Shown piece by piece: positions 16,565 through 59,717 of a DNA stretch of 64,000 nt. The notes under the pieces are model-generated. The model was not told the origin of the DNA, did no database searches, and saw nothing but the letters and a program-made list of their open reading frames with translations. This stretch comes from an uncultured Verrucomicrobiae bacterium. GTDB lineage: Bacteria > Chlamydiota > Chlamydiia > Chlamydiales > JAFEGQ01. Made by a program: the position numbers and the translations under genes. The DNA lies in NCBI GenBank assembly GCA_963739345.1, contig CAVUAA010000002.1:397378-461377 (forward strand), given 5' to 3'. Every line of letters starts with the position of its first letter. Position 1 is the stretch's first letter.

Positions 16565-16724
16565 GCCCAAGTTCTACCTCTTCCTTTGCTGATGGCGCGC
16601 GCTTTTGGCGATCCACTTTGCCTCGCTCCTCAGACGTGGCTGGTGGCCACGCCGTTCGTCGCGATGCCCGTGTCTCGCACAAAATCACACACCCTAAGAC
16701 AAAGGAATAGGTAGCACATGGGCC
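16564..16724. mobile_element. MITE-like element (~161 bp) between sufC and sufD
   Basis: Degenerate TIRs GGCCCAAGTTCTACCT...AGGTAGCACATGGGCC; core GCCTCGCTCCTCAGACGTGGCTGGTGGCCACGCC shared with other copies. Confidence 0.8.
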
Positions 16725-17749
16725 TTGACGAATTATTTGCTACACGCTCTGATCTTCCTAAGCTCCGCGCGCAGGCGTGGGAGCGTGCGCAGGCGCTCGG
16801 ACTTCCCAAGGGAATCCGGGGCACCTACGCAGCCGCAGCCGCTCCGGCACTGCCGGCAGGTGTTGAGGCGATTCCTCTTGCCCAGGCGGCGCTCACGTTT
16901 GGCGCCTTCCTCAACACCCGCTGGTCACGGTCGCTGAAAGAGGAGACCTCCCCTCACGCCGCCCTCAACGGTGCGGTTCACGGTGAGGGGCTCTTCCTCT
17001 CCATCCCCCCAAATACCAAAGTTGAAGCGCCGATCCACCTCAACCACCACCTTGCCGCCGATACCCTTACCCTTCCTCGCGTCCACATCTTTGTAGGTGC
17101 GGGTGCGGAAGTGGAATTGATTGAGACGATCAGGGGCGATGGCCAGTGCAACGGCCTGTTTGATATCGCACTAGAAGAGGGGGCTCGCGCCACTCTCACT
17201 CTCCGTCATGATGGGGCGGTCCACTCCTCCATCCGCGCCACTCTCAAAAGAGATGCCCGCCTCAAAACCGTCGTCTATACCGAGAGCGGCGCAGTGAGTC
17301 ACGACTACCGCGTTGCCCTCGCTGGCGAGAATGGTGAAGTCGATCTGATCGGCGGCTGGCAGCTTGCTGATGATTCTCGCGTAGCAATCAACATCCACGT
17401 GGAACACATCGCCCCTCACTGCCGCTCTTCCCAACTCTTTAAAGGAGTGCTCCGCGACACCTCTCGCTCCAGTTTCATTGGCAAGATCTACGTCCACCGC
17501 GAGGCGCAGAAGACCGACGCCTTCCAGCTCAACAACAACCTCATTCTCAGCGACCGCGCCTCGGCCCACTCCGAGCCCAACCTTGAGATCTTCGCTGACG
17601 ACGTCAAAGCCTCCCACGGCTCCACCACCGGCCAGTTTGACCCCACCGAACTCTTCTACCTCCGCTCTCGCGGTCTCTCTGACGCGGCCGCCCGCGCTCT
17701 ACTAGTTGACGCTTTCCTTAAGCCAATCACAGACCAGCTCGGTGATTGA
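16718..17749 (+). CDS. sufD: Fe-S cluster assembly protein SufD
   Basis: SSQLFKGVL, PNLEIFADDVKASHG, FYLRSRG motifs. Confidence 0.93.
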   Translation: MGLDELFATRSDLPKLRAQAWERAQALGLPKGIRGTYAAAAAPALPAGVEAIPLAQAALTFGAFLNTRWSRSLKEETSPHAALNGAVHGEGLFLSIPPNTKVEAPIHLNHHLAADTLTLPRVHIFVGAGAEVELIETIRGDGQCNGLFDIALEEGARATLTLRHDGAVHSSIRATLKRDARLKTVVYTESGAVSHDYRVALAGENGEVDLIGGWQLADDSRVAINIHVEHIAPHCRSSQLFKGVLRDTSRSSFIGKIYVHREAQKTDAFQLNNNLILSDRASAHSEPNLEIFADDVKASHGSTTGQFDPTELFYLRSRGLSDAAARALLVDAFLKPITDQLGD

Positions 17750-17780
17750 TGGCCTCTCAACACTCTCGTCGCCGCCATTT

Positions 17781-18500
17781 TTAGGTTGGGCGGTACCAGA
17801 TGCGTAGCCATTTCTGGCGAGCCTTTTGTAACATCGACGTCTGTCCGTCAGCTTTTCGTTCAGTGGGAATGGGCTCCATGATCCTGACCCTTCCGTTTTC
17901 AAGGTCTGCGAGCGGTTTCTCAAGACCTAGAAGAAATTTAGTCGAGCCCGGGAGGTCGTAGGCAATATCCAGGTGGAGCGTCCCGCTCTCATTATCTTGC
18001 CATACGACTAGTACCCCATCCAGAAAGTTCTGACAAGTTGAGCGCGGGCTGACCTCCCAGATGCTTCGTTGCGCTGCTTCGGCGATGAACACATCGCCTC
18101 CATCGCGCGCCTCGCCTCTGGGGGTCGCGCCTTCTCAACTTCCCAGAACTTTCTGGATGGAGTACTAGTGTGGATCCCGGAATCCGAGGACTTCTGTAGG
18201 CAGTCAAAAATGCCATTTCGATTTAAGTCTTTAACTACGTAAATGGGGTTGGAGGGAAGATAAGTCTGGAGCGCCTGCAAGCGGTTGGGGAGGTTAATAC
18301 AGAGCAGGCGGACCTGCTTACGCCGCTCCGTCAGTTCCCACCCCGTGTAGCTCTTCATGGACCAAATGATAGAGTGCCTTATCAACTTGGGCCAGCCTCA
18401 TCGCACTCGTTGTGTCTGCCCAGAGTAAGATCTCTACTCATATGTTCTTATTGGGGAGTGCTTGTTTTGAAGATATCGCATTGTTTTCCATTTTCACCAT
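17781..18500 (-). pseudogene. Degraded F-box-like effector gene
   Basis: From ATG 18500: ...ALPNKNI*VEILLWADTTSAMRLAQVDKALYHLV (F-box-like), then fragmented ORFs in other frames. Confidence 0.45.
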
Positions 18501-18809
18501 CCTAGATAAGGATGTTTTGATCTATTATATCTAGAGTATATAGATGCTTCATAAAGAGCGCTTATTTTTTATCGCATTAACTAGTTAATTGTGAGTTAGA
18601 TGCGACTTGCTGTAAGGGCGCCCGATCCAGTTAATTGTAAGCTGCCAAATTGCGCGGTTCCGGTCAACCTTAGAGAGTGACCTAAACAGATAAAGGCGAG
18701 TTGGTTATATAGAAATAGCTCAAAGTAGAACTGGGCTGACATTTTGACGGCGGGGCGGGGTGCCCTAGCGAAAGATTGACAATTGTCGCCCGTTCCCTCG
18801 TTAAACCTA

Positions 18810-20237
18810 TCACCCAAGCAGTTGTCCAAAGTCGATGACTTGGGAGAAGAAGCCTGATTCGGCGACCTCGTCTGTGACGCCGTTGACGTGTATGAGGACA
18901 GGTCGGATGGAGTAGTTCCTAGGAGCCTTTAGCCTCTTGATCTTCTCCTTGATTTCGTCGACCACTGACCATCCCACTTCATCCTTGTTGAACTTGACTT
19001 CGCAAAGATAGAGCGTATTGAAACGAGTCTGAATCAGAAGATCGATTTGGCACCCTTTTTGTTTCAGCGTAGCGGTCTGAAAGTAGGGGCCACCAAATTG
19101 GAAGTCAGCGAGATCGATATGAAGTATTTCGTAAATTTTAGGGCGGTTGTTAAGCACCAAGTTTTCGAATTGCAGACCCATGATGCTGTGCCATTGGGGC
19201 ATTTCGGCTCGACCGTTTTGCAAAACCGTTTCTCTTCTCGGTTCGATATAGCGCAGGTAAAACCGAAGATAGTTGTCGCATAGGCGATAGCGGTTTAGCT
19301 TGCTCCGTTGGGTTGTGCCGGGTTCCCATCTGTACTCGCGAGCTAGGTATCCTGTTTTCACAAGATCATCAAGATAAGTGGATGTGACGCCTCCAGACTG
19401 TTCGCCCATTCCCTGTAGGATAGCTTCTTTAGCGAACGACCCCCTAACGGTTTGCTCGATCAGTTGCTTGTACTTCGCGCTCCGTTGTGAGAATAGATCG
19501 GAGAAGATTCGATCAAATTCGTTAAACAAAATCCCGTCTGGTCTGAAACAGAGTCGCTGGATATTTTCCTCAGCCGATATTTCAGGTCGAATGAGCTCTA
19601 GATAGCGAGGTACACCGCCCGTTACCGAAAGTAGCTTGAATTTTTCATATGGAGAGACAAGCTGAGCCTGTGCATTCCAGAAGTAGGAACATTGTTCTAT
19701 GGGGAGCTCTTTAAGCGTCATATCAAGCGTAACCCGTCCGAAAAAACCCGTTGAGCCGAGAATATTTTTCTCGATCCAGCCCGACATGGATCCGCTAAGA
19801 ATCAGAATGAGTTTTGGGTTTTTGCTCAGTTTTGCATCCCACGCAGTCTTTAGTTTCGGTAAAAACGTCGGGTCCTTGGAACCCATCCAATTGATTTCGT
19901 CCAGTACGATCACCACACGCCCGGTTGAGGTGAGTGCTGCTAGCTGAAGCAAGAGGTAATCCCAATTATCCTTGCGTATGCCAGTTTCGCCAAACTGATC
20001 CGCGAGTTGTGCCGCAAAGTGATCTCTTTGGTGTTGAGCAGAGGTCCCCTCTTCGGGCGCTAGGCCGAGAAAGCTAACGGTACGTAGGGGCTTGCAAAAT
20101 TCTTCGATGAGGCGCGACTTCCCAATGCGACGTCTCCCTTTGATGACGACTAAATTCGCAATTCGGAGCGTTAGTAGTTCGTGGAGAGCTTCGAGCTCAC
20201 GCTCTCGCCCGATAAATTTTTGTTCGTCGTTATTCAC
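18810..20237 (-). CDS. ATPase (archaeal ATPase_2-like) with wHTH and C-terminal PD-(D/E)XK nuclease, paralogue A
   Basis: FIGRERE, GRRRIGKS Walker A, IVLDEI Walker B, GGVPRYL, QIDLL...CEVK; GTG start with AAAGGAG RBS. Confidence 0.88.
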   Translation of the reverse strand: MNNDEQKFIGRERELEALHELLTLRIANLVVIKGRRRIGKSRLIEEFCKPLRTVSFLGLAPEEGTSAQHQRDHFAAQLADQFGETGIRKDNWDYLLLQLAALTSTGRVVIVLDEINWMGSKDPTFLPKLKTAWDAKLSKNPKLILILSGSMSGWIEKNILGSTGFFGRVTLDMTLKELPIEQCSYFWNAQAQLVSPYEKFKLLSVTGGVPRYLELIRPEISAEENIQRLCFRPDGILFNEFDRIFSDLFSQRSAKYKQLIEQTVRGSFAKEAILQGMGEQSGGVTSTYLDDLVKTGYLAREYRWEPGTTQRSKLNRYRLCDNYLRFYLRYIEPRRETVLQNGRAEMPQWHSIMGLQFENLVLNNRPKIYEILHIDLADFQFGGPYFQTATLKQKGCQIDLLIQTRFNTLYLCEVKFNKDEVGWSVVDEIKEKIKRLKAPRNYSIRPVLIHVNGVTDEVAESGFFSQVIDFGQLLG

Positions 20238-20255
20238 TTGGGGCTCCTTTTCGTT

Positions 20256-20403
20256 GCTATCCGCAAATCGCCATTTTAGTGATTTGTGGCTAGATATGTG
20301 CCCGTAATTTTCTATCCACAAATTCGCGTTTCGGCGATTTGCGGATAGATCAATTGGGGCTCAAGTCTATCCGCAAATCGCGTTTTATGCAATTTGCGGA
20401 TGA
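20256..20403. repeat. Three imperfect ~38-bp palindromes at 55-bp period upstream of ATPase A
   Basis: TCTATCCGCAAATCGC..GCGATTTGCGGATAGA-type units starting 20256, 20311, 20366. Confidence 0.88.
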
Positions 20404-20553
20404 ATTTGTCAGTCTATATTTTGTAAGTCGTTAATAATAAGAGGTTAATAAAATTCTAGTAGAGGCTCTAGACAGATGAAATAGGTCCTTTTGAATAGAC
20501 GAGGTGGGGGCGAGAATTGACCATCGGAGGTAAAAAGCGTAGCATGGGCAGCC

Positions 20554-21749
20554 ATGAGAGATGATGTGCGTGATGATTTTCCGATGTTGAGGGGGAGCTG
20601 TGTTATTTGGACACGGCAGCGACGGCGTTGAAGCCGCAGGTGGTGATCGATGCGGTGCAGAGATACTACGCGGAGGAGTGCGGGACGGTTCATCGGGGGG
20701 TGTATGGGCTGGCGGTGAGGAATACTGAGAAACAGCATGAGGTGAGGGGGCAGGTGGCGCGGTTTTTGAATGCGCCATCTGTTGATGAGGTGATTTTCAC
20801 GAAGGGGACGACGGAGGCGTTGAACCTGGTCGCCTACTGTTTGGGCGAGGCGTATGTGGACATGGGCGATGAGGTGGTGATCACTGAGGTGGAGCACCAT
20901 GCCAATATCGTGCCGTGGCAGCTGATGTGCGAGGCGCGGGGGGCGAGTCTCAAGGTGTTGCCGGTGGGTGATGACGGTGAGCTGATCTTGGAGGCGTTTG
21001 AGAATGTGCTGACCCACAAGACGAAGATTGTGGCGCTGGGTCATATTTCGAATGCGATTGGGACGGTACATCCGGTGAAACAGGTGGCGCTGTTGGCCAA
21101 AGAGGTTGGCGCCATGGTGGTGGTCGACGGGGCGCAGGCAGCACCGCATATGAAGATCGATGTGCAGGATCTGGGGGTCGATTTCTACGCGTTTTCGGCC
21201 CACAAGGCGTATGGCCCGACGGGGATTGGGGTGTTGTGGGGGAGGAAGGAGATTTTGGATACGCTCCCTCCTTATCAGGGGGGAGGGGACATGATTGAGG
21301 AGGTCACCTTCGAGGAGACCACCTACAATACGGTGCCGTTCCGGTTTGAGGCGGGGACGCCCCACATTGCGGGGATTCATGGATTGGGTGCGGCGATTGA
21401 GTATATTGAGAGTGTGGGTTTGGAGGCGATAGGTGCGCATGAGCAGCAGTTGCTAGCACATGCAACGAAGAGGATTGAGGAGGTTCCTGGGGTGCGGATC
21501 ATCGGAGAGGCGGAGCACAAGGCGGCGATCTTGAGCTTTGTGATTGAGGGGTGTCATCCGCTTGATGTGGGGACGCTGCTCGATCAGGAGGGGATTGCGG
21601 TGCGGACCGGTCACCACTGCGCCCAGCCGGCGATGAACCGCTTTGGGGTAAAGCACACAATTCGGGCCTCTTTTGCCCTTTACAACACTCTAAGTGATGT
21701 CGATCGGTTGATCGATGCGCTCAAGAAAATCCAGGCTAAACTTAAGTAA
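20554..21749 (+). CDS. sufS: Cysteine desulfurase SufS, with apparent 1-nt deletion in G-run at 20591-20595
   Basis: MRDDVRDDFPML then YLDTAAT in another frame; FSAHKAYGP, RTGHHCA motifs. Confidence 0.93.
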
Positions 21750-48247: not shown

Positions 48248-49207
48248 ATGGCGAACTTCGTTCCAAAAAAAGCTTCTATTTTTTCGGGCTCGCAAGAGCG
48301 TGTGCAGCGGGGTCGTGAGCTGGTGCAGAAGGACAAAGTGGGCTGTCTGTTGCTCGCCGGTGGACAGGGGACGCGGCTCAGATTTGATGGGCCAAAGGGT
48401 TTGTTTCCCATTGGACTGAATGGGGAGACGCTCTTTCAATTGTTTCAGGAAAAAAGAGCGGTGGCGGGAGAGGATCTTCCGTTTGCGATTTTGGTCTCGC
48501 CCGAAAATGAAGGTGCAACGCGGGAGGCGGTGCCAGAAGCTGACATTTGCGTGCAGGGGGTGTTGCCGCTTCTCAATGAGGCGGGTGAGGAGTTTCTAAA
48601 GGGGCCCGGAGAGACGGCGGTGGGGCCTGATGGAAATGGATTGGCGCTCCGCCGCTTTGTCGAGTCGGGCATTTGGGAGAGGTGGCGAGAACAGGGTGTG
48701 GAGTATCTCAATATTGCTCTGGTCGATAATCCGCTGGGTGATCCCTACGACGCCGAGCTGGTAGCGTTTTGTGAGGGGTTGGACATTGCGGTGAAAGCGA
48801 CGAAGCGGCGCCATGCACAGGAGAGAGTGGGGGTGATTGTTGAGGATGGGAGCAAGCTGCGGGTGATTGAGTATTCGGAGTTGGAGGATGGGGGTGATTA
48901 CGAGCTGGCCAACTTAAGCCTCTTCTGCATGACGATGGAGTTTGCGAAGCGGGCGGCCGCGGAGGAGCTGCCGCTTCACCGTGCACACAAGGCAGTGCCG
49001 ATGTGGGATGGGGAGAAGACTGTTTGGCCGAAGGCACCCAACGCTTGGAAGTCGGAGTACTTCATCTTCGATATCCTTCCCTTGGCCGAGCGGGCTGATG
49101 TGATCTGCTATCCGCGGGAGGAGTGCTTCGCTCCTCTTAAGAATGCGGAGGGTGAGGAGAGCCCCGAGACCGTCCGTGCTGCTTTGGCCGCTAGAATAGA
49201 GTGGTGA
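48248..49207 (+). CDS. Eukaryote-type UDP-GlcNAc/UDP-glucose pyrophosphorylase (UDPGP family)
   Basis: LLAGGQGTRL..PKG, PDGNG, VDNPL, EYSE, FAPLKN motifs. Confidence 0.9.
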   Translation: MANFVPKKASIFSGSQERVQRGRELVQKDKVGCLLLAGGQGTRLRFDGPKGLFPIGLNGETLFQLFQEKRAVAGEDLPFAILVSPENEGATREAVPEADICVQGVLPLLNEAGEEFLKGPGETAVGPDGNGLALRRFVESGIWERWREQGVEYLNIALVDNPLGDPYDAELVAFCEGLDIAVKATKRRHAQERVGVIVEDGSKLRVIEYSELEDGGDYELANLSLFCMTMEFAKRAAAEELPLHRAHKAVPMWDGEKTVWPKAPNAWKSEYFIFDILPLAERADVICYPREECFAPLKNAEGEESPETVRAALAARIEW

Positions 49208-50618
49208 AGTCGACGATATGGTCGAGCTCCTGGCTCTCACGGACGCCTTGTGTGATCCCATTGACGTGGATGAGGACTTGGCGTGTTGACCAATGTCTTG
49301 GAATTTGGAGGCGGACTCGCTTCTCTTTCATTTGGTGGACGACATCTAGGCCGACCGAGTCGTTGCTGAATTTGATCTCGCAGAGAAAAAGGGTGCGGTG
49401 GCGGGTCTGAATGGCGAGATCGACTTGGCTTCCTTTTTGTCGCTGTGTAGGACGTTGGAAGTAGGGGCCGTACATTTCAACGTCACCGGTTGATAGGTTG
49501 AGATGGTCGAAGAGGGTGGGGGCGTTTTGAATGACGAGGTTTTCGAATTGCAGGCCCATTGTCGACTCCCATCCAGGGAGCGATGCGAGGGAGGGAGGGG
49601 CGTACCGGGCTCGCTCGATTTTGTCGCGGTTGGGAAGAAGATAGCGGAGATAGAAGCGGAGGTAGTTGTCGGCCAGCCGAAATTTTTTTAGACGGGAGGT
49701 TTTGCCTGTTTTGAACGACCAGGTCGGATCATCGGCGACAAAGCCCGCTTGGATCAGATCGTTTAGTAGGGCTGAGAGCCATCCGCTTTTGTCGAGATTG
49801 AGCGCATGCTGAAGAGCTGCTAAATCGCTTGGACCATTGGCTAGGCGGTGCACGACATCCATGTAAAGAGGCGCCCGTTTAGAGAAGAGGTCAGAGAAGA
49901 TCCGTTCGAACTCAGCAAAAAGGAGGCCTGCTTTATTGAAGCAGAGGCGGTGGATGTTTTCTTCGGCCGATAGGTGGGGCAACACCTCCTCGAGATAGCG
50001 TGGCACGCTGCCGGTCACCGAAAGAACCTTTAATATTTCATGAGGGCTGACGCGGTCACGGCGGCCGTCCCAGAACTCTGCAGCATCCTTCAGAGGAAGG
50101 GGGTCGAGCTTCAGATCGCAAGAGATCCTCCCCAAGAATCCGGTCGAGCTTAGAATATTTTTTTGGATCCAACTAGACACCGAACCGCAGACGATGAGAA
50201 TCAGTTTCGGGTTCTTAGAGAAGTGAAGATCCCAAGCGTTTTTGAGTTGGCCCAGAAAGTGGGGATCCTTGGATCCAATCCACGAAATTTCATCGAGGGA
50301 CAAAATCACCCGTCCCTTTTTTGTCAGCTGTCCGAGTTGCCAGAAGAGGTCTCCCCAACTTTCTGCTCGAGGCTTGGGGATTCCAAAGAGCTGGGCCATT
50401 CTTTCGCCAAACTGTTCAAGCTGTGTTTGGTGGCTCGTGGCATGGCTAGGTGGTATGCCCGAGAAGGTGTAGCAAGGCATGTCGCTCCCAAACTCCTGAA
50501 TCAATCGGCTCTTGCCGATTCGTCTCCTTCCGCGGATGACCACGAAGGAGGCCGATCTTTTCTTCAGGTAGGAGCGGAGCAGTTCGAGCTCCTGTGATCG
50601 TCCAATAAAGCGTGTCAT
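49191..50618 (-). CDS. ATPase-wHTH-PD-(D/E)XK nuclease, paralogue B
   Basis: FIGRSQE, GRRRIGKS, LSLDEI, GSVPRYL, QVDLA...CEIK. Confidence 0.88.
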   Translation of the reverse strand: MTRFIGRSQELELLRSYLKKRSASFVVIRGRRRIGKSRLIQEFGSDMPCYTFSGIPPSHATSHQTQLEQFGERMAQLFGIPKPRAESWGDLFWQLGQLTKKGRVILSLDEISWIGSKDPHFLGQLKNAWDLHFSKNPKLILIVCGSVSSWIQKNILSSTGFLGRISCDLKLDPLPLKDAAEFWDGRRDRVSPHEILKVLSVTGSVPRYLEEVLPHLSAEENIHRLCFNKAGLLFAEFERIFSDLFSKRAPLYMDVVHRLANGPSDLAALQHALNLDKSGWLSALLNDLIQAGFVADDPTWSFKTGKTSRLKKFRLADNYLRFYLRYLLPNRDKIERARYAPPSLASLPGWESTMGLQFENLVIQNAPTLFDHLNLSTGDVEMYGPYFQRPTQRQKGSQVDLAIQTRHRTLFLCEIKFSNDSVGLDVVHQMKEKRVRLQIPRHWSTRQVLIHVNGITQGVRESQELDHIVDFTTLF

Positions 50619-50632
50619 AGGTGCCATTAATT

Positions 50633-50711
50633 GTATCACAAGAATGACATATGTCAATCATGGGATATGGGGCTGTTCCGTCAAGCCGTATCACAAGAAT
50701 GACATATGTCA
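50633..50711. repeat. Two identical 24-bp repeats at 55-bp period upstream of ATPase B
   Basis: GTATCACAAGAATGACATATGTCA at 50633 and 50688; palindromic core TGACATATGTCA. Confidence 0.9.
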
Positions 50712-50848
50712 CTTTCGCACATGGAGGCACAGCCATTTATACATTGATAATCAATGAGATATGAAATTGTAAGGAGAGGTGCTGTTTTGAGTCCTTGTTC
50801 AATTCAGAAGGAACCATTACCCTGGATGAAAGTTTTAGGAGAGTTGTG

Positions 50849-58178: not shown

Positions 58179-58216
58179 ATGTGCATCCTACTGATTATCA
58201 GTGACTGTTGTCAAGA

Positions 58217-58259
58217 CAGGCATCACCAAAATCGATTTTTCTTGTTTTGGTGATGCCTG
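58217..58259. repeat. 15-bp perfect inverted repeat upstream of ATPase C
   Basis: CAGGCATCACCAAAA-N13-TTTTGGTGATGCCTG. Confidence 0.88.
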
Positions 58260-58280: not shown

Positions 58281-59717
58281 ATGGGAACACGATTTTACGG
58301 ACGAGAGCGGGAATTGGAGATATTGAGCGAGCTGCTTGAGAAGCAGGTCGCCAGCTTGGTTGTGCTTAAAGGACGACGGCGAATTGGCAAGAGCCGATTG
58401 ATGGAGGAGTTTGGGCAACAGCTCAAAACTCTAACGTTTGAGGGGATCCCCCCCAAAGATGACAAGGTGACCGCCCAGGATCAGCGCAATCACATGGCTA
58501 ACGAGATGAATCGTGAACTGGGTTTACGGGGGATCAAAGCGGACGATTGGGACGATCTCCTTTGGCATCTGGCACAGCAGACTCAAGAGGGGCGTGTGCT
58601 TATCATCTTTGATGAGATTAACTGGATGGGATCGGCTGATCCTACGTTTTTGGGCAAACTCAAGACGGCTTGGGACAAGTACCTTAAGAAGAACCCGAAG
58701 CTGATCATGATTCTCAGTGGCTCCATGTCAGGTTGGATTGAGCGGAATATTCTTAGTAGTACAGGATTTCTCGGACGGGTGTCGATTGATATGACGTTGG
58801 AGGAGCTCCCCCTCCATCAGTGCGACCAGTTTTGGGGGAGAGCGAGAGAGACGACGTCGGCAATAGAAAAATTTAAGATCCTTTCGGTGACCGGAGGCGT
58901 GCCCCGCTATCTCGAAGAGATCGATCCTAAGCGGACGGCAGAGGAGAACATCTTTAGGCTCTGCTTCAGAAAAGAAGCGCTCCTCTTCAACGAGTTTGCG
59001 CGGATCTTCTCCGATCTTTTTTCTCAGCGGGCTAAGACCTATCAGAAAATTGTGACCCGGCTGGCGATGGGGAGTGCGACCGTCGAAGAGGTATGTGATT
59101 TTGTGGGTGTGAAGAAGGGAGGGCTAATTAGCGGATACCTGCTCGACCTAGAAGAGACGCAGTACGTTGCGCGGGACTACAGCTGGAGTATTAAGTCAGG
59201 CAGACGGGTCAACATCAGTCGGCACCGACTCAAAGACAATTATCTCCGCTTTTATCTGCGCTACATCCTGCCCAATGTTGAAGCGATAAAAAAGCAGCGT
59301 ATGAAAAAACCGCCGGCGTGGGATGCAATCATGGGCCTGCAGTTTGAGAACCTCGTCGCGAATAACTTCCGTAGTCTCTACAGCACGCTCGGCATTCCAC
59401 CCGAATCGGTGGTGCACGACGGACCCTATTTTCAGCGGAAGACAAAAGTGCATCCGGGGTGTCAAATCGACTACCTGATCCAGACTGAGTACAACAATCT
59501 CTACCTATGCGAGATGAAATTTTCGGCAAAGCCGATCGGTCCGAAAGTGATTTCACAGGTGCAAGATGCAATTGAGCGTCTCCACCTTCCAGGCGGCCGT
59601 TTTTCCTACCGCCCAGTGTTGATCCACGCCAACGGCGTGAGCGATGCCGTTCGGAACAGTGACTTTTTCACTCACATTGTTGATTTCGGTGACTTGTTGA
59701 AAGGGGAAGGATCATGA
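58281..59717 (+). CDS. ATPase-wHTH-PD-(D/E)XK nuclease, paralogue C (alternative start 58269)
   Basis: FYGRERE, GRRRIGKS, IIFDEI, GGVPRYL, QIDYL...CEMK. Confidence 0.88.
   Translation: MGTRFYGRERELEILSELLEKQVASLVVLKGRRRIGKSRLMEEFGQQLKTLTFEGIPPKDDKVTAQDQRNHMANEMNRELGLRGIKADDWDDLLWHLAQQTQEGRVLIIFDEINWMGSADPTFLGKLKTAWDKYLKKNPKLIMILSGSMSGWIERNILSSTGFLGRVSIDMTLEELPLHQCDQFWGRARETTSAIEKFKILSVTGGVPRYLEEIDPKRTAEENIFRLCFRKEALLFNEFARIFSDLFSQRAKTYQKIVTRLAMGSATVEEVCDFVGVKKGGLISGYLLDLEETQYVARDYSWSIKSGRRVNISRHRLKDNYLRFYLRYILPNVEAIKKQRMKKPPAWDAIMGLQFENLVANNFRSLYSTLGIPPESVVHDGPYFQRKTKVHPGCQIDYLIQTEYNNLYLCEMKFSAKPIGPKVISQVQDAIERLHLPGGRFSYRPVLIHANGVSDAVRNSDFFTHIVDFGDLLKGEGS

Follow-up and report, generated by a model that had tools for sequence, protein, structure and literature searches.

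Phased palindromes that travel with a PDC-S27-type ATPase gene across phyla: a candidate autoregulatory operator array

Introduction

A short array of palindromes, set at a constant distance from one another directly upstream of the gene for a large ATPase, raises the question of what such an array is for: whether it belongs to the gene, whether it would work as DNA or as RNA, and which protein might bind it. The array in question lies in a divergent intergenic region of the stretch of DNA analyzed here (hereafter the window)—64,000 nucleotides from an uncultured Verrucomicrobiae bacterium with the GTDB lineage Chlamydiota; Chlamydiia; Chlamydiales; JAFEGQ01 (assembly GCA_963739345.1, contig CAVUAA010000002.1, positions 397,378 to 461,377 of the forward strand)—and the gene is that of a protein that we call ATPase A. 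A preliminary description of this DNA had reported three palindromes at an exact period of 55 bp, separated by unrelated spacers of 16 bp; had read the distance of about five helical turns as suiting cooperative binding by an oligomeric ATPase; and had offered as the alternative a leader transcribed into repeated hairpins.

We report here that the array, a conserved cis-element, belongs to a mobile cassette of one gene. With moderate confidence, and from the comparison of sequences presented below, we consider that it probably constitutes an array of phased operators to which the product of the gene itself binds cooperatively, with autoregulation as the result. What is new in this analysis is the cross-phylum census of the array, the strict period of 51–56 bp maintained by spacers whose sequence has decayed, the strand test, and the domain-specific co-variation between the DNA sites and the protein.

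Results

The Palindrome Array Upstream of ATPase A

A repeat search of the window yielded three dyad-symmetric copies of about 38 bp between positions 20256 and 20404 at a period of exactly 55 bp: the direct-repeat family consists of three copies that start at 20257, 20312, and 20367 (55 and 55 from start to start), and inverted-repeat pairs make every copy palindromic, with an arm of 15–16 nt (CTATCCGCAAATCGC), a center of 6–7 nt, and the complementary arm. The gene and the parts of the array are as follows:

18810..20237, minus strand: ATPase A gene, 475 aa, with the GTG start codon at 20237-20235 and the ribosome-binding site (RBS) AAGGAG at 20249-20244
20256..20294: palindromic unit 1, nearest the ATPase A gene and the most degenerate, one arm having 3 mismatches to the consensus
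20295..20310: spacer 1, 16 nt, unique in the genome, its sequence unrelated to that of spacer 2
20311..20349: palindromic unit 2, one arm of which has a 1-nt insertion; in the gene sense GATAGAAAAT comes after the unit
20350..20365: spacer 2, 16 nt, in which 13 nt nearly copy the RBS/start-codon segment (20234-20246)
20366..20404: palindromic unit 3, the most distant from the ATPase A gene

Going upstream from the start codon of the minus-strand gene, unit 1 is reached after 19 nt. The three palindromes with their period, the two unrelated 16-nt spacers, and the position upstream of ATPase A were therefore all as the preliminary description had given them.

The exact 15-mer of the arm is present in three copies, along with two copies having 3 mismatches, all inside 20257-20403, and with up to 3 mismatches allowed the 64-kb window has one further match, at 283-297. 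These six matches compare with 2.28 expected; the clustering and the three exact copies of the arm are not due to chance. When a 14-mer of the arm was searched for at up to 1 mismatch in the entire 1.72-Mb genome, it was encountered in three places, all in the array.

The 13-nt direct repeat noted in the list above is 12/13 identical between the RBS/start-codon segment and spacer 2 (at 20350-20362), at an offset of 116 nt, which distance is unequal to 2 x 55; the copy in the spacer may be the vestige of an older start region.

Conservation of the Array in Relatives

The census comprised 130 loci, of which 50 came from the present genome and from relatives of its order, and 80 were the best of the relatives, at least 583 in number, found among genome contigs; a start codon could be assigned in 127, and 122 of these had at least 200 nt of upstream DNA. 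About half of the 80 relatives are labeled as chlamydial, and the labels of the others are those of the Legionellales, the Thiotrichales, other Gammaproteobacteria, the Alphaproteobacteria (including Caedibacter and Finniella), the Verrucomicrobiota, the Bdellovibrionota, the Dependentiae, and further groups, with homologues of about 50% identity being spread over phyla.

Within the 200 nt upstream, the best palindrome scored 11 or more in 66/122 loci, compared with 0/610 shuffled sequences, 2/488 intragenic windows, and 13/116 downstream windows; in the close clade, a unit defined by its motif was present in 79/110 loci, as against 4/110 shuffled and 0/110 intragenic controls. The number of units per array ranged from 1 to 4. 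A direct repeat above the 99th percentile of the shuffles was found upstream in 74/121 loci (4/121 downstream, 0/127 intragenic), and the periods were 51 bp (6 loci, all in a distant clade), 53 bp (10), 54 bp (34), 55 bp (21), 56 bp (2), and 85 bp (1), so that 73/74 were comprised between 51 and 56 bp. Measured from center to center, 33/37 successive unit pairs were 53–56 bp apart, which period is common to the loci labeled as Chlamydiota, Legionellales, Thiotrichales, Alphaproteobacteria, Verrucomicrobiota, and Bdellovibrionota; and 53–55 bp is equivalent to 5.0–5.2 turns of B-DNA. A conservation of repeats and period before orthologous genes, which the preliminary description had set as the test of its proposal, is thus what these counts display.

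The comparison of neighboring units (30 pairs) gave identities of 0.9–1.0 in the arms (8–16 nt from the center) and of 0.5–0.8 in the core, whereas the spacers of the same pairs were identical at about 0.3–0.4 (mean 0.34, versus 0.83 for the units). That the length of the spacers is kept while their sequence decays argues for selection on geometry and against a recent duplication; the symmetry and the spacing are under a selection from which the spacer sequence is free. Each arm position uses all four bases, and yet in units preselected for at least 7/9 complementary positions 86% of the arm positions were complementary, versus 31% with shuffled partners. The best-conserved parts lie about 24 bp apart inside a unit and about 31 bp apart between units.

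The distant clade, of 25–30% identity and including paralogue H of the present genome, has palindromes of another sequence. We also considered distant ATPase_2/DUF234 genes (22–27% identity) on 8 plasmids of cultured organisms, where a palindrome with a score of at least 12 occurred within 200 nt upstream in 4/8—those of Butyrivibrio fibrisolvens (L146), Segatella hominis (L150), Rhodothermus marinus (L151), and Methanocaldococcus jannaschii (L152)—and a significant period of 51–56 bp in none of the eight; the palindromes of these distant members are suggestive only.

Paralogues and Other Palindromes in the Same Genome

The genome contains eight homologues: seven close paralogues and the distant H. 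In the close paralogues, all seven of them, 1–4 palindromes precede the start codon at distances of up to about 170 nt, except in G, whose single clear palindrome is located about 220–250 nt upstream. The outer arms differ between paralogues; the core is common to them, near AAATCGACAAATGTCGATTT, and holds TTGACA or TCGACA in both orientations. Since the genes upstream vary from one paralogue to another, the ATPase gene is the sole constant partner of the palindromes. The sites, then, exist; every paralogue has its own, and across phyla they accompany the gene. Two of the paralogues are also in the window:

49191-50618, minus strand: paralogue F gene, with two private units at 50632..50721 at a 55-bp period
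58281-59717, plus strand: paralogue C gene, with one private palindrome at 58220..58256, then TAGAAT

At the nearest unit of paralogue F, the gene sense reads TTGACA-N16-TACAAT. A further short palindrome, around TGATTATCA, was seen about 20–40 nt upstream of the units of paralogues C (58190-58202) and F (50742-50756), and paralogue E has CTGAAAATCAG at a comparable place. Paralogue B is bracketed by near-identical 53-bp palindromes of the repetitive extragenic palindrome (REP) type, at C1:159172-159224 and C1:161124-161176.

A census of the genome gave 124 long palindromes, most of them in dispersed REP-like families, among which the ATPase-type core was found almost only upstream of the ATPase paralogues. 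A solo palindrome with a core of that type, AAATCGACAAATGTCGA, lies at contig 2:104127-104164 (L136:2128-2165), between a Y1-transposase gene and serS, and may be an orphaned cassette promoter. In seven genes of this genome a Y1 (IS200-like) transposase is fused to a MarR-like winged helix (e.g., C1:403790-404728, C1:659394-660320, and C2:186494-187351), and several of the seven have, on their flanks, long REP-like palindromes of a family peculiar to them. The dispersed REP-like families accompany these Y1-transposase genes.

The ATPase A Protein

ATPase A belongs to PDC-S27/COG1672 (ATPase_2 plus DUF234), as was ascertained from its domains and from a full-length match to the PADLOC model PDC-S27 (PDLC04984; E 2.1e-81), in which residues 8-473 align with positions 3-471 of the 474 in the profile. 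PF01637 (ATPase_2) covers residues 9-216 (E 3.9e-13, 50.2 bits versus a cut-off of 33.2). DUF234 (PF03008) had no match at E 0.01 or better in ATPase A itself, and paralogues D, E, F, G, and H exceed the cut-off of that model. Three domains can be delimited: residues 1-235, approximately, form the AAA+ ATPase_2 domain, about 240-320 the winged helix, and about 345-475 the PD-(D/E)xK nuclease domain. The Walker A (GRRRIGKS) and Walker B (DEINW) motifs are both conserved in an alignment of 29 homologues, and the residues E358, D399, E413, and K415—the E...D...ExK arrangement near the C-terminus—are invariant in 29/29, the middle region being variable.

An AlphaFold2 model of ATPase A, with a pLDDT value (predicted local-distance difference test) of 91.9, comprises the AAA+ domain, the winged helix, and a C-terminal alpha/beta domain. 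With the first 350 residues, Foldseek returned the archaeal ATPase_2 structures 2qen and 2fna as the best matches, then STAND NB-ARC and ORC/Cdc6 proteins, the latter including Orc1 on origin DNA (2qby, 2v1u). The C-terminal domain modeled alone (pLDDT 90.4) weakly resembles PD-(D/E)xK nucleases, with a best E of 7.7e-4, its fold relatives being NucS/EndoMS (2vld), McrC, and the Shedu protein SduA. According to these models, the predicted protein carries the fold of the DNA-binding AAA+ initiators; with the Orc1/Cdc6 family model TIGR02928 it scored 18.3 bits versus a cut-off of 181.3, so that the likeness is one of fold only.

In the sections of PMC12988326 that treat it, PDC-S27 is a candidate defense system in which an ATPase is fused to a PD-(D/E)xK domain, and DUF234/COG1672 figures among the PD-(D/E)xK families in the corresponding part of PMC3424549.

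The Insertion and Its Surroundings

The cassette is carried by a segment located between two suf genes:

16718-17749: sufD (SufBD gene), ending at 17749
17750..20606: about 2.85 kb inserted between sufD and sufS, with the ATPase cassette in it
20607-21749, plus strand: sufS (SufS-like class-V aminotransferase)

Because sufD and sufS are adjacent in 4/4 related genomes examined, those 2.85 kb constitute an insertion, by which the ATPase gene arrived together with its array. The G+C content of the segment is about 43–50%, versus 56% in the genome, and 100–150 bp of cassette DNA lie beyond the array before the edge of the insertion is reached. A search here for duplicated ends of the neighboring genes flanking the insertion found none, only a 162-bp element resembling a miniature inverted-repeat transposable element (MITE). 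This element, inside the insertion at 18008-18169, has terminal inverted repeats of 25 nt and at least four near-identical copies (97–99%) elsewhere in the genome.

The beginning of the SufS-like gene (20546-20610) presents a peculiarity of its own, in that the N-terminal ..DDFPML.. is seemingly out of frame with the rest (..YLDTAAT..). The break occurs near the G-run at 20590-20597, and the open frame of 380 aa compares with 394–422 aa in relatives; it is either a true frameshift beside the insertion or a homopolymer error of the assembly.

Promoter-Like Elements Around the Units

Measured upstream from the start codon, the centers of the units peak at 20–140 nt. Several loci have a -10-like box (TAGAAT, TACAAT, TATAAT, or TAAAAT) directly after a unit whose center or right half supplies a TTGACA-like -35; over 116 units, good -10-like hexamers were somewhat commoner on the gene side (32 vs 19, p = 0.03). 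Judged by its sequence, the GATAGAAAAT behind unit 2 is a possible candidate for the -10 element of ATPase A.

Discussion

Alternative Explanations

The units might work as RNA, in which circumstance the leader would form 1–4 hairpins that control translation or the stability of the messenger, for instance by sequestering the RBS or through RNase III. This transcribed-hairpin alternative of the preliminary description, which we consider unlikely, has in its favor that the nearest unit ends no more than 18 nt from the start codon in 20/79 loci, so that some units must overlap the start site or be at least partly transcribed. In the gammaproteobacterial locus L120, moreover, the spacer that precedes the nearest unit contains TATAAT, and the right arm of that unit GAGGA, just before the ATG; and the array of ATPase A, folded as single-stranded DNA, is far more stable than its shuffles (z = -7.1). 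The signature expected of RNA, however, did not emerge: the wobble-strand test on 91 palindromes gave no significant bias (p = 0.16), since the mismatches in the arms, read in the gene sense, lean only slightly toward G-T (31, against 20 A-C), and the other 54 of the 105 wobble on neither strand. Rfam, likewise, had no match in 20200-20620 and a single chance-level one in 18200-20700 (E 0.097, below the gathering score). Independent hairpins, furthermore, would have no obvious use for a strict period of 53–56 bp with decayed spacers, and in the several loci where a -10-like box is downstream of the sole or the last unit, that unit would stay untranscribed.

That the array could be a cis site for some DNA transaction by the ATPase-nuclease—loading or replication initiation in the manner of an origin recognition box (ORB), recombination, or cleavage, possibly of a cruciform—when the cassette moves or is copied would agree with a mobile cassette inserted between sufD and sufS, with homologues of about 50% identity across phyla, with the ORC/Cdc6-like fold, and with nuclease motif residues that are invariant in 29/29 homologues within a fold like that of NucS/EndoMS, McrC, and Shedu. 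We nevertheless hold this explanation to be decidedly unlikely, for the units are 5' only, just 13/116 downstream regions having a strong palindrome, and those that were checked in this genome belonging with the dispersed REP-like palindromes; the edge of the insertion is not where the array lies; a flanking duplication was not found here; the Orc1/Cdc6 model falls far below its cut-off; and the number of units varies. Very unlikely, to our mind, is that another factor binds the units, or that these are duplicated promoter modules whose core holds a TTGACA-like -35, the ATPase not being the binder. The core common to the paralogues, with its hexamers in both orientations, and the solo core-type unit near the Y1 transposase and serS would be accounted for in that way; but within a locus the arms and not the core are best conserved, the private arms follow the gene across phyla in different host backgrounds, and the similarity of the arms tracks the middle region of the protein. 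As to a degenerate array resembling clustered regularly interspaced short palindromic repeats (CRISPR) or a dispersed palindrome of the REP or MITE type, we give that notion practically no credence. Palindromic repeats at a constant period, unrelated spacers, a genome rich in REP-like palindromes, and its seven Y1-transposase genes might evoke it, but spacers of 16 nt are short compared with the roughly 21–72 bp of CRISPR, the units number 1–4 and are tied to one gene family, and the REP families of this genome differ in sequence. The CRISPR-like reading was rejected when the exact matches in IMG/VR—6 for spacer 1 and 5 for spacer 2—proved to be within a rough chance estimate for a 16-mer, and when the host genome gave no other exact match, spacer 2 having two chance-level sites at 2 mismatches; an origin of the spacers in genome or phage DNA, for which the preliminary description had wished them searched, accordingly found no footing in IMG/VR and the host genome. 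The dispersed-repeat reading was rejected because the arm is unique to this locus in the 1.72-Mb genome.

Binding by the Product of the Adjacent Gene

The explanation we favor remains the phased operator array, for which the following scheme can be proposed. Every unit would offer two inverted half-sites about 24 bp apart—the variable arms, beside an A-tract—and successive units, at 53–56 bp, would be separated by about 5 helical turns. The binder would most likely be the product of the adjacent gene, an AAA+ ATPase of ORC/STAND-like type that also has a PD-(D/E)xK nuclease domain and a winged helix, the last of which might read the arms. Binding would be cooperative, with dimers touching one another along one face of the DNA; the bound protein would cover its own promoter and start region; and the outcome would be an autorepression through which a potentially toxic candidate defense nuclease might be kept at a low, self-limited level. 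The conserved palindromes and period, the decayed spacers, the ORC/STAND fold, and the tracking of the arms by the winged helix all fit the cooperative binding across about five turns that the preliminary description had advanced, the binding itself being a prediction.

With respect to the part of the protein that would contact the DNA, arm similarity correlated with the identity of the winged helix when the other two domains were controlled for (partial rho 0.132, reached by 0/500 permutations), and in the same test the values were 0.087 for the ATPase domain (5/500) and -0.001 for the nuclease domain (267/500); this co-variation, however, is small, and the partial Mantel test is liberal for related sequences, which considerations are among several that weigh against the proposed operator. 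A scan of mutual information by protein column gave the winged helix a mean maximum of 0.32, versus 0.29 and 0.30 elsewhere, a result that is uninformative because the half-site register carries an uncertainty of 1 nt. In STAND NTPases the winged helix serves a structural role and is not a DNA-binding element, and the fold of ATPase A matches STAND proteins as well as ORC. One core-type unit is away from any ATPase gene, and 43/122 loci have no palindrome scoring 10 or more. The privacy of the arms was not significant as a statistical result: although 0 of 26 pairs of co-resident paralogues share an arm (at most 6/9 matches), only 3% of all pairs share 7/9 or more. In addition, a consensus scan for a sigma-70-like site inside the ATPase A array found none, leaving the promoter assignment weak, and the arms of some loci have 15–26 perfectly paired bases, more than an ordinary dimeric operator needs.

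Comparison With Known Systems

PDC-S27/COG1672 corresponds to the present protein in the full-length match, the ATPase_2 N-terminus, and the PD-(D/E)xK C-terminus, with DUF234 in paralogues D–H; in the descriptions covered it appears as a protein family and a defense candidate, and upstream palindromes are absent from them. The main texts covered of the literature on PDC-S27, DUF234/PF01637/PF03008, COG1672, and the "archaeal ATPase" likewise yielded no description of such palindromes, and S27 is mentioned 0 times in the body of the PADLOC preprint (10.1101/2024.01.29.577857).

Among better-known arrangements, the archaeal Orc1/Cdc6 proteins with their ORBs share with ATPase A the AAA+ module and the winged helix, as well as repeated dyad elements beside the protein's own gene, since ORBs lie beside cdc6 genes. 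Unlike Orc1/Cdc6, however, ATPase A is outside that family, bacterial, present with its paralogues in 7–8 copies per genome, and endowed with an extra nuclease domain; and whereas ORBs are inverted around an AT-rich unwinding element, the units here are in tandem, at 53–56 bp, and directly before the start codon.

The same concept is embodied by the controller (C) proteins of restriction-modification systems, with their paired C-boxes, and regulators of the BrxR/CapW type, where small dedicated regulators bind palindromic operators: at those loci, too, a potentially toxic nuclease or defense gene has dyad operators before it at a fixed spacing, whose cooperative binding makes expression self-limiting. 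No separate regulator gene is conserved here, so that binding would fall to the large ATPase-nuclease itself; and the units differ from those operators in their size of about 38 bp, in having half-sites about 24 bp apart, and in numbering up to four. The REP sequences and their RAYT or TIRYT proteins, finally, provide an example of a DNA-processing protein whose paralogues each have cognate palindromes next to the gene, but REPs are on both sides and dispersed, while the ATPase palindromes are upstream only, at a fixed period, and not dispersed.

Significance

A tentative extension of this operator, unlikely as it stands, is that the 2n half-sites, alternating at about 24 and 31 bp, might template an ordered oligomer of the ATPase-nuclease, so that the promoter would serve as a "parking site" where the protein represses its gene and the nuclease is held latent at private addresses until a phage trigger or competing DNA releases it. 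If this were true, the private address of each paralogue would allow 7–8 systems side by side with no cross-talk, release or activation of the nuclease would follow from a phage trigger or from competing DNA, and the private arms would report the DNA-recognition code of a very abundant family of defense candidates.

Members of PDC-S27/COG1672 number in the thousands in archaea and bacteria, according to the part of PMC12988326 devoted to them. The family is among the commonest uncharacterized candidate defense genes, and for each of its proteins that has such an array the latter predicts the DNA sequence that should be bound, a geometry in which about 5 turns separate the units, and a circuit of self-regulation; it offers, besides, an explanation for the coexistence of many paralogues in a genome of 1.7 Mb. 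The mobile unit that is spreading among protist-associated bacteria of different phyla is, then, the array plus the gene, and not the gene alone.

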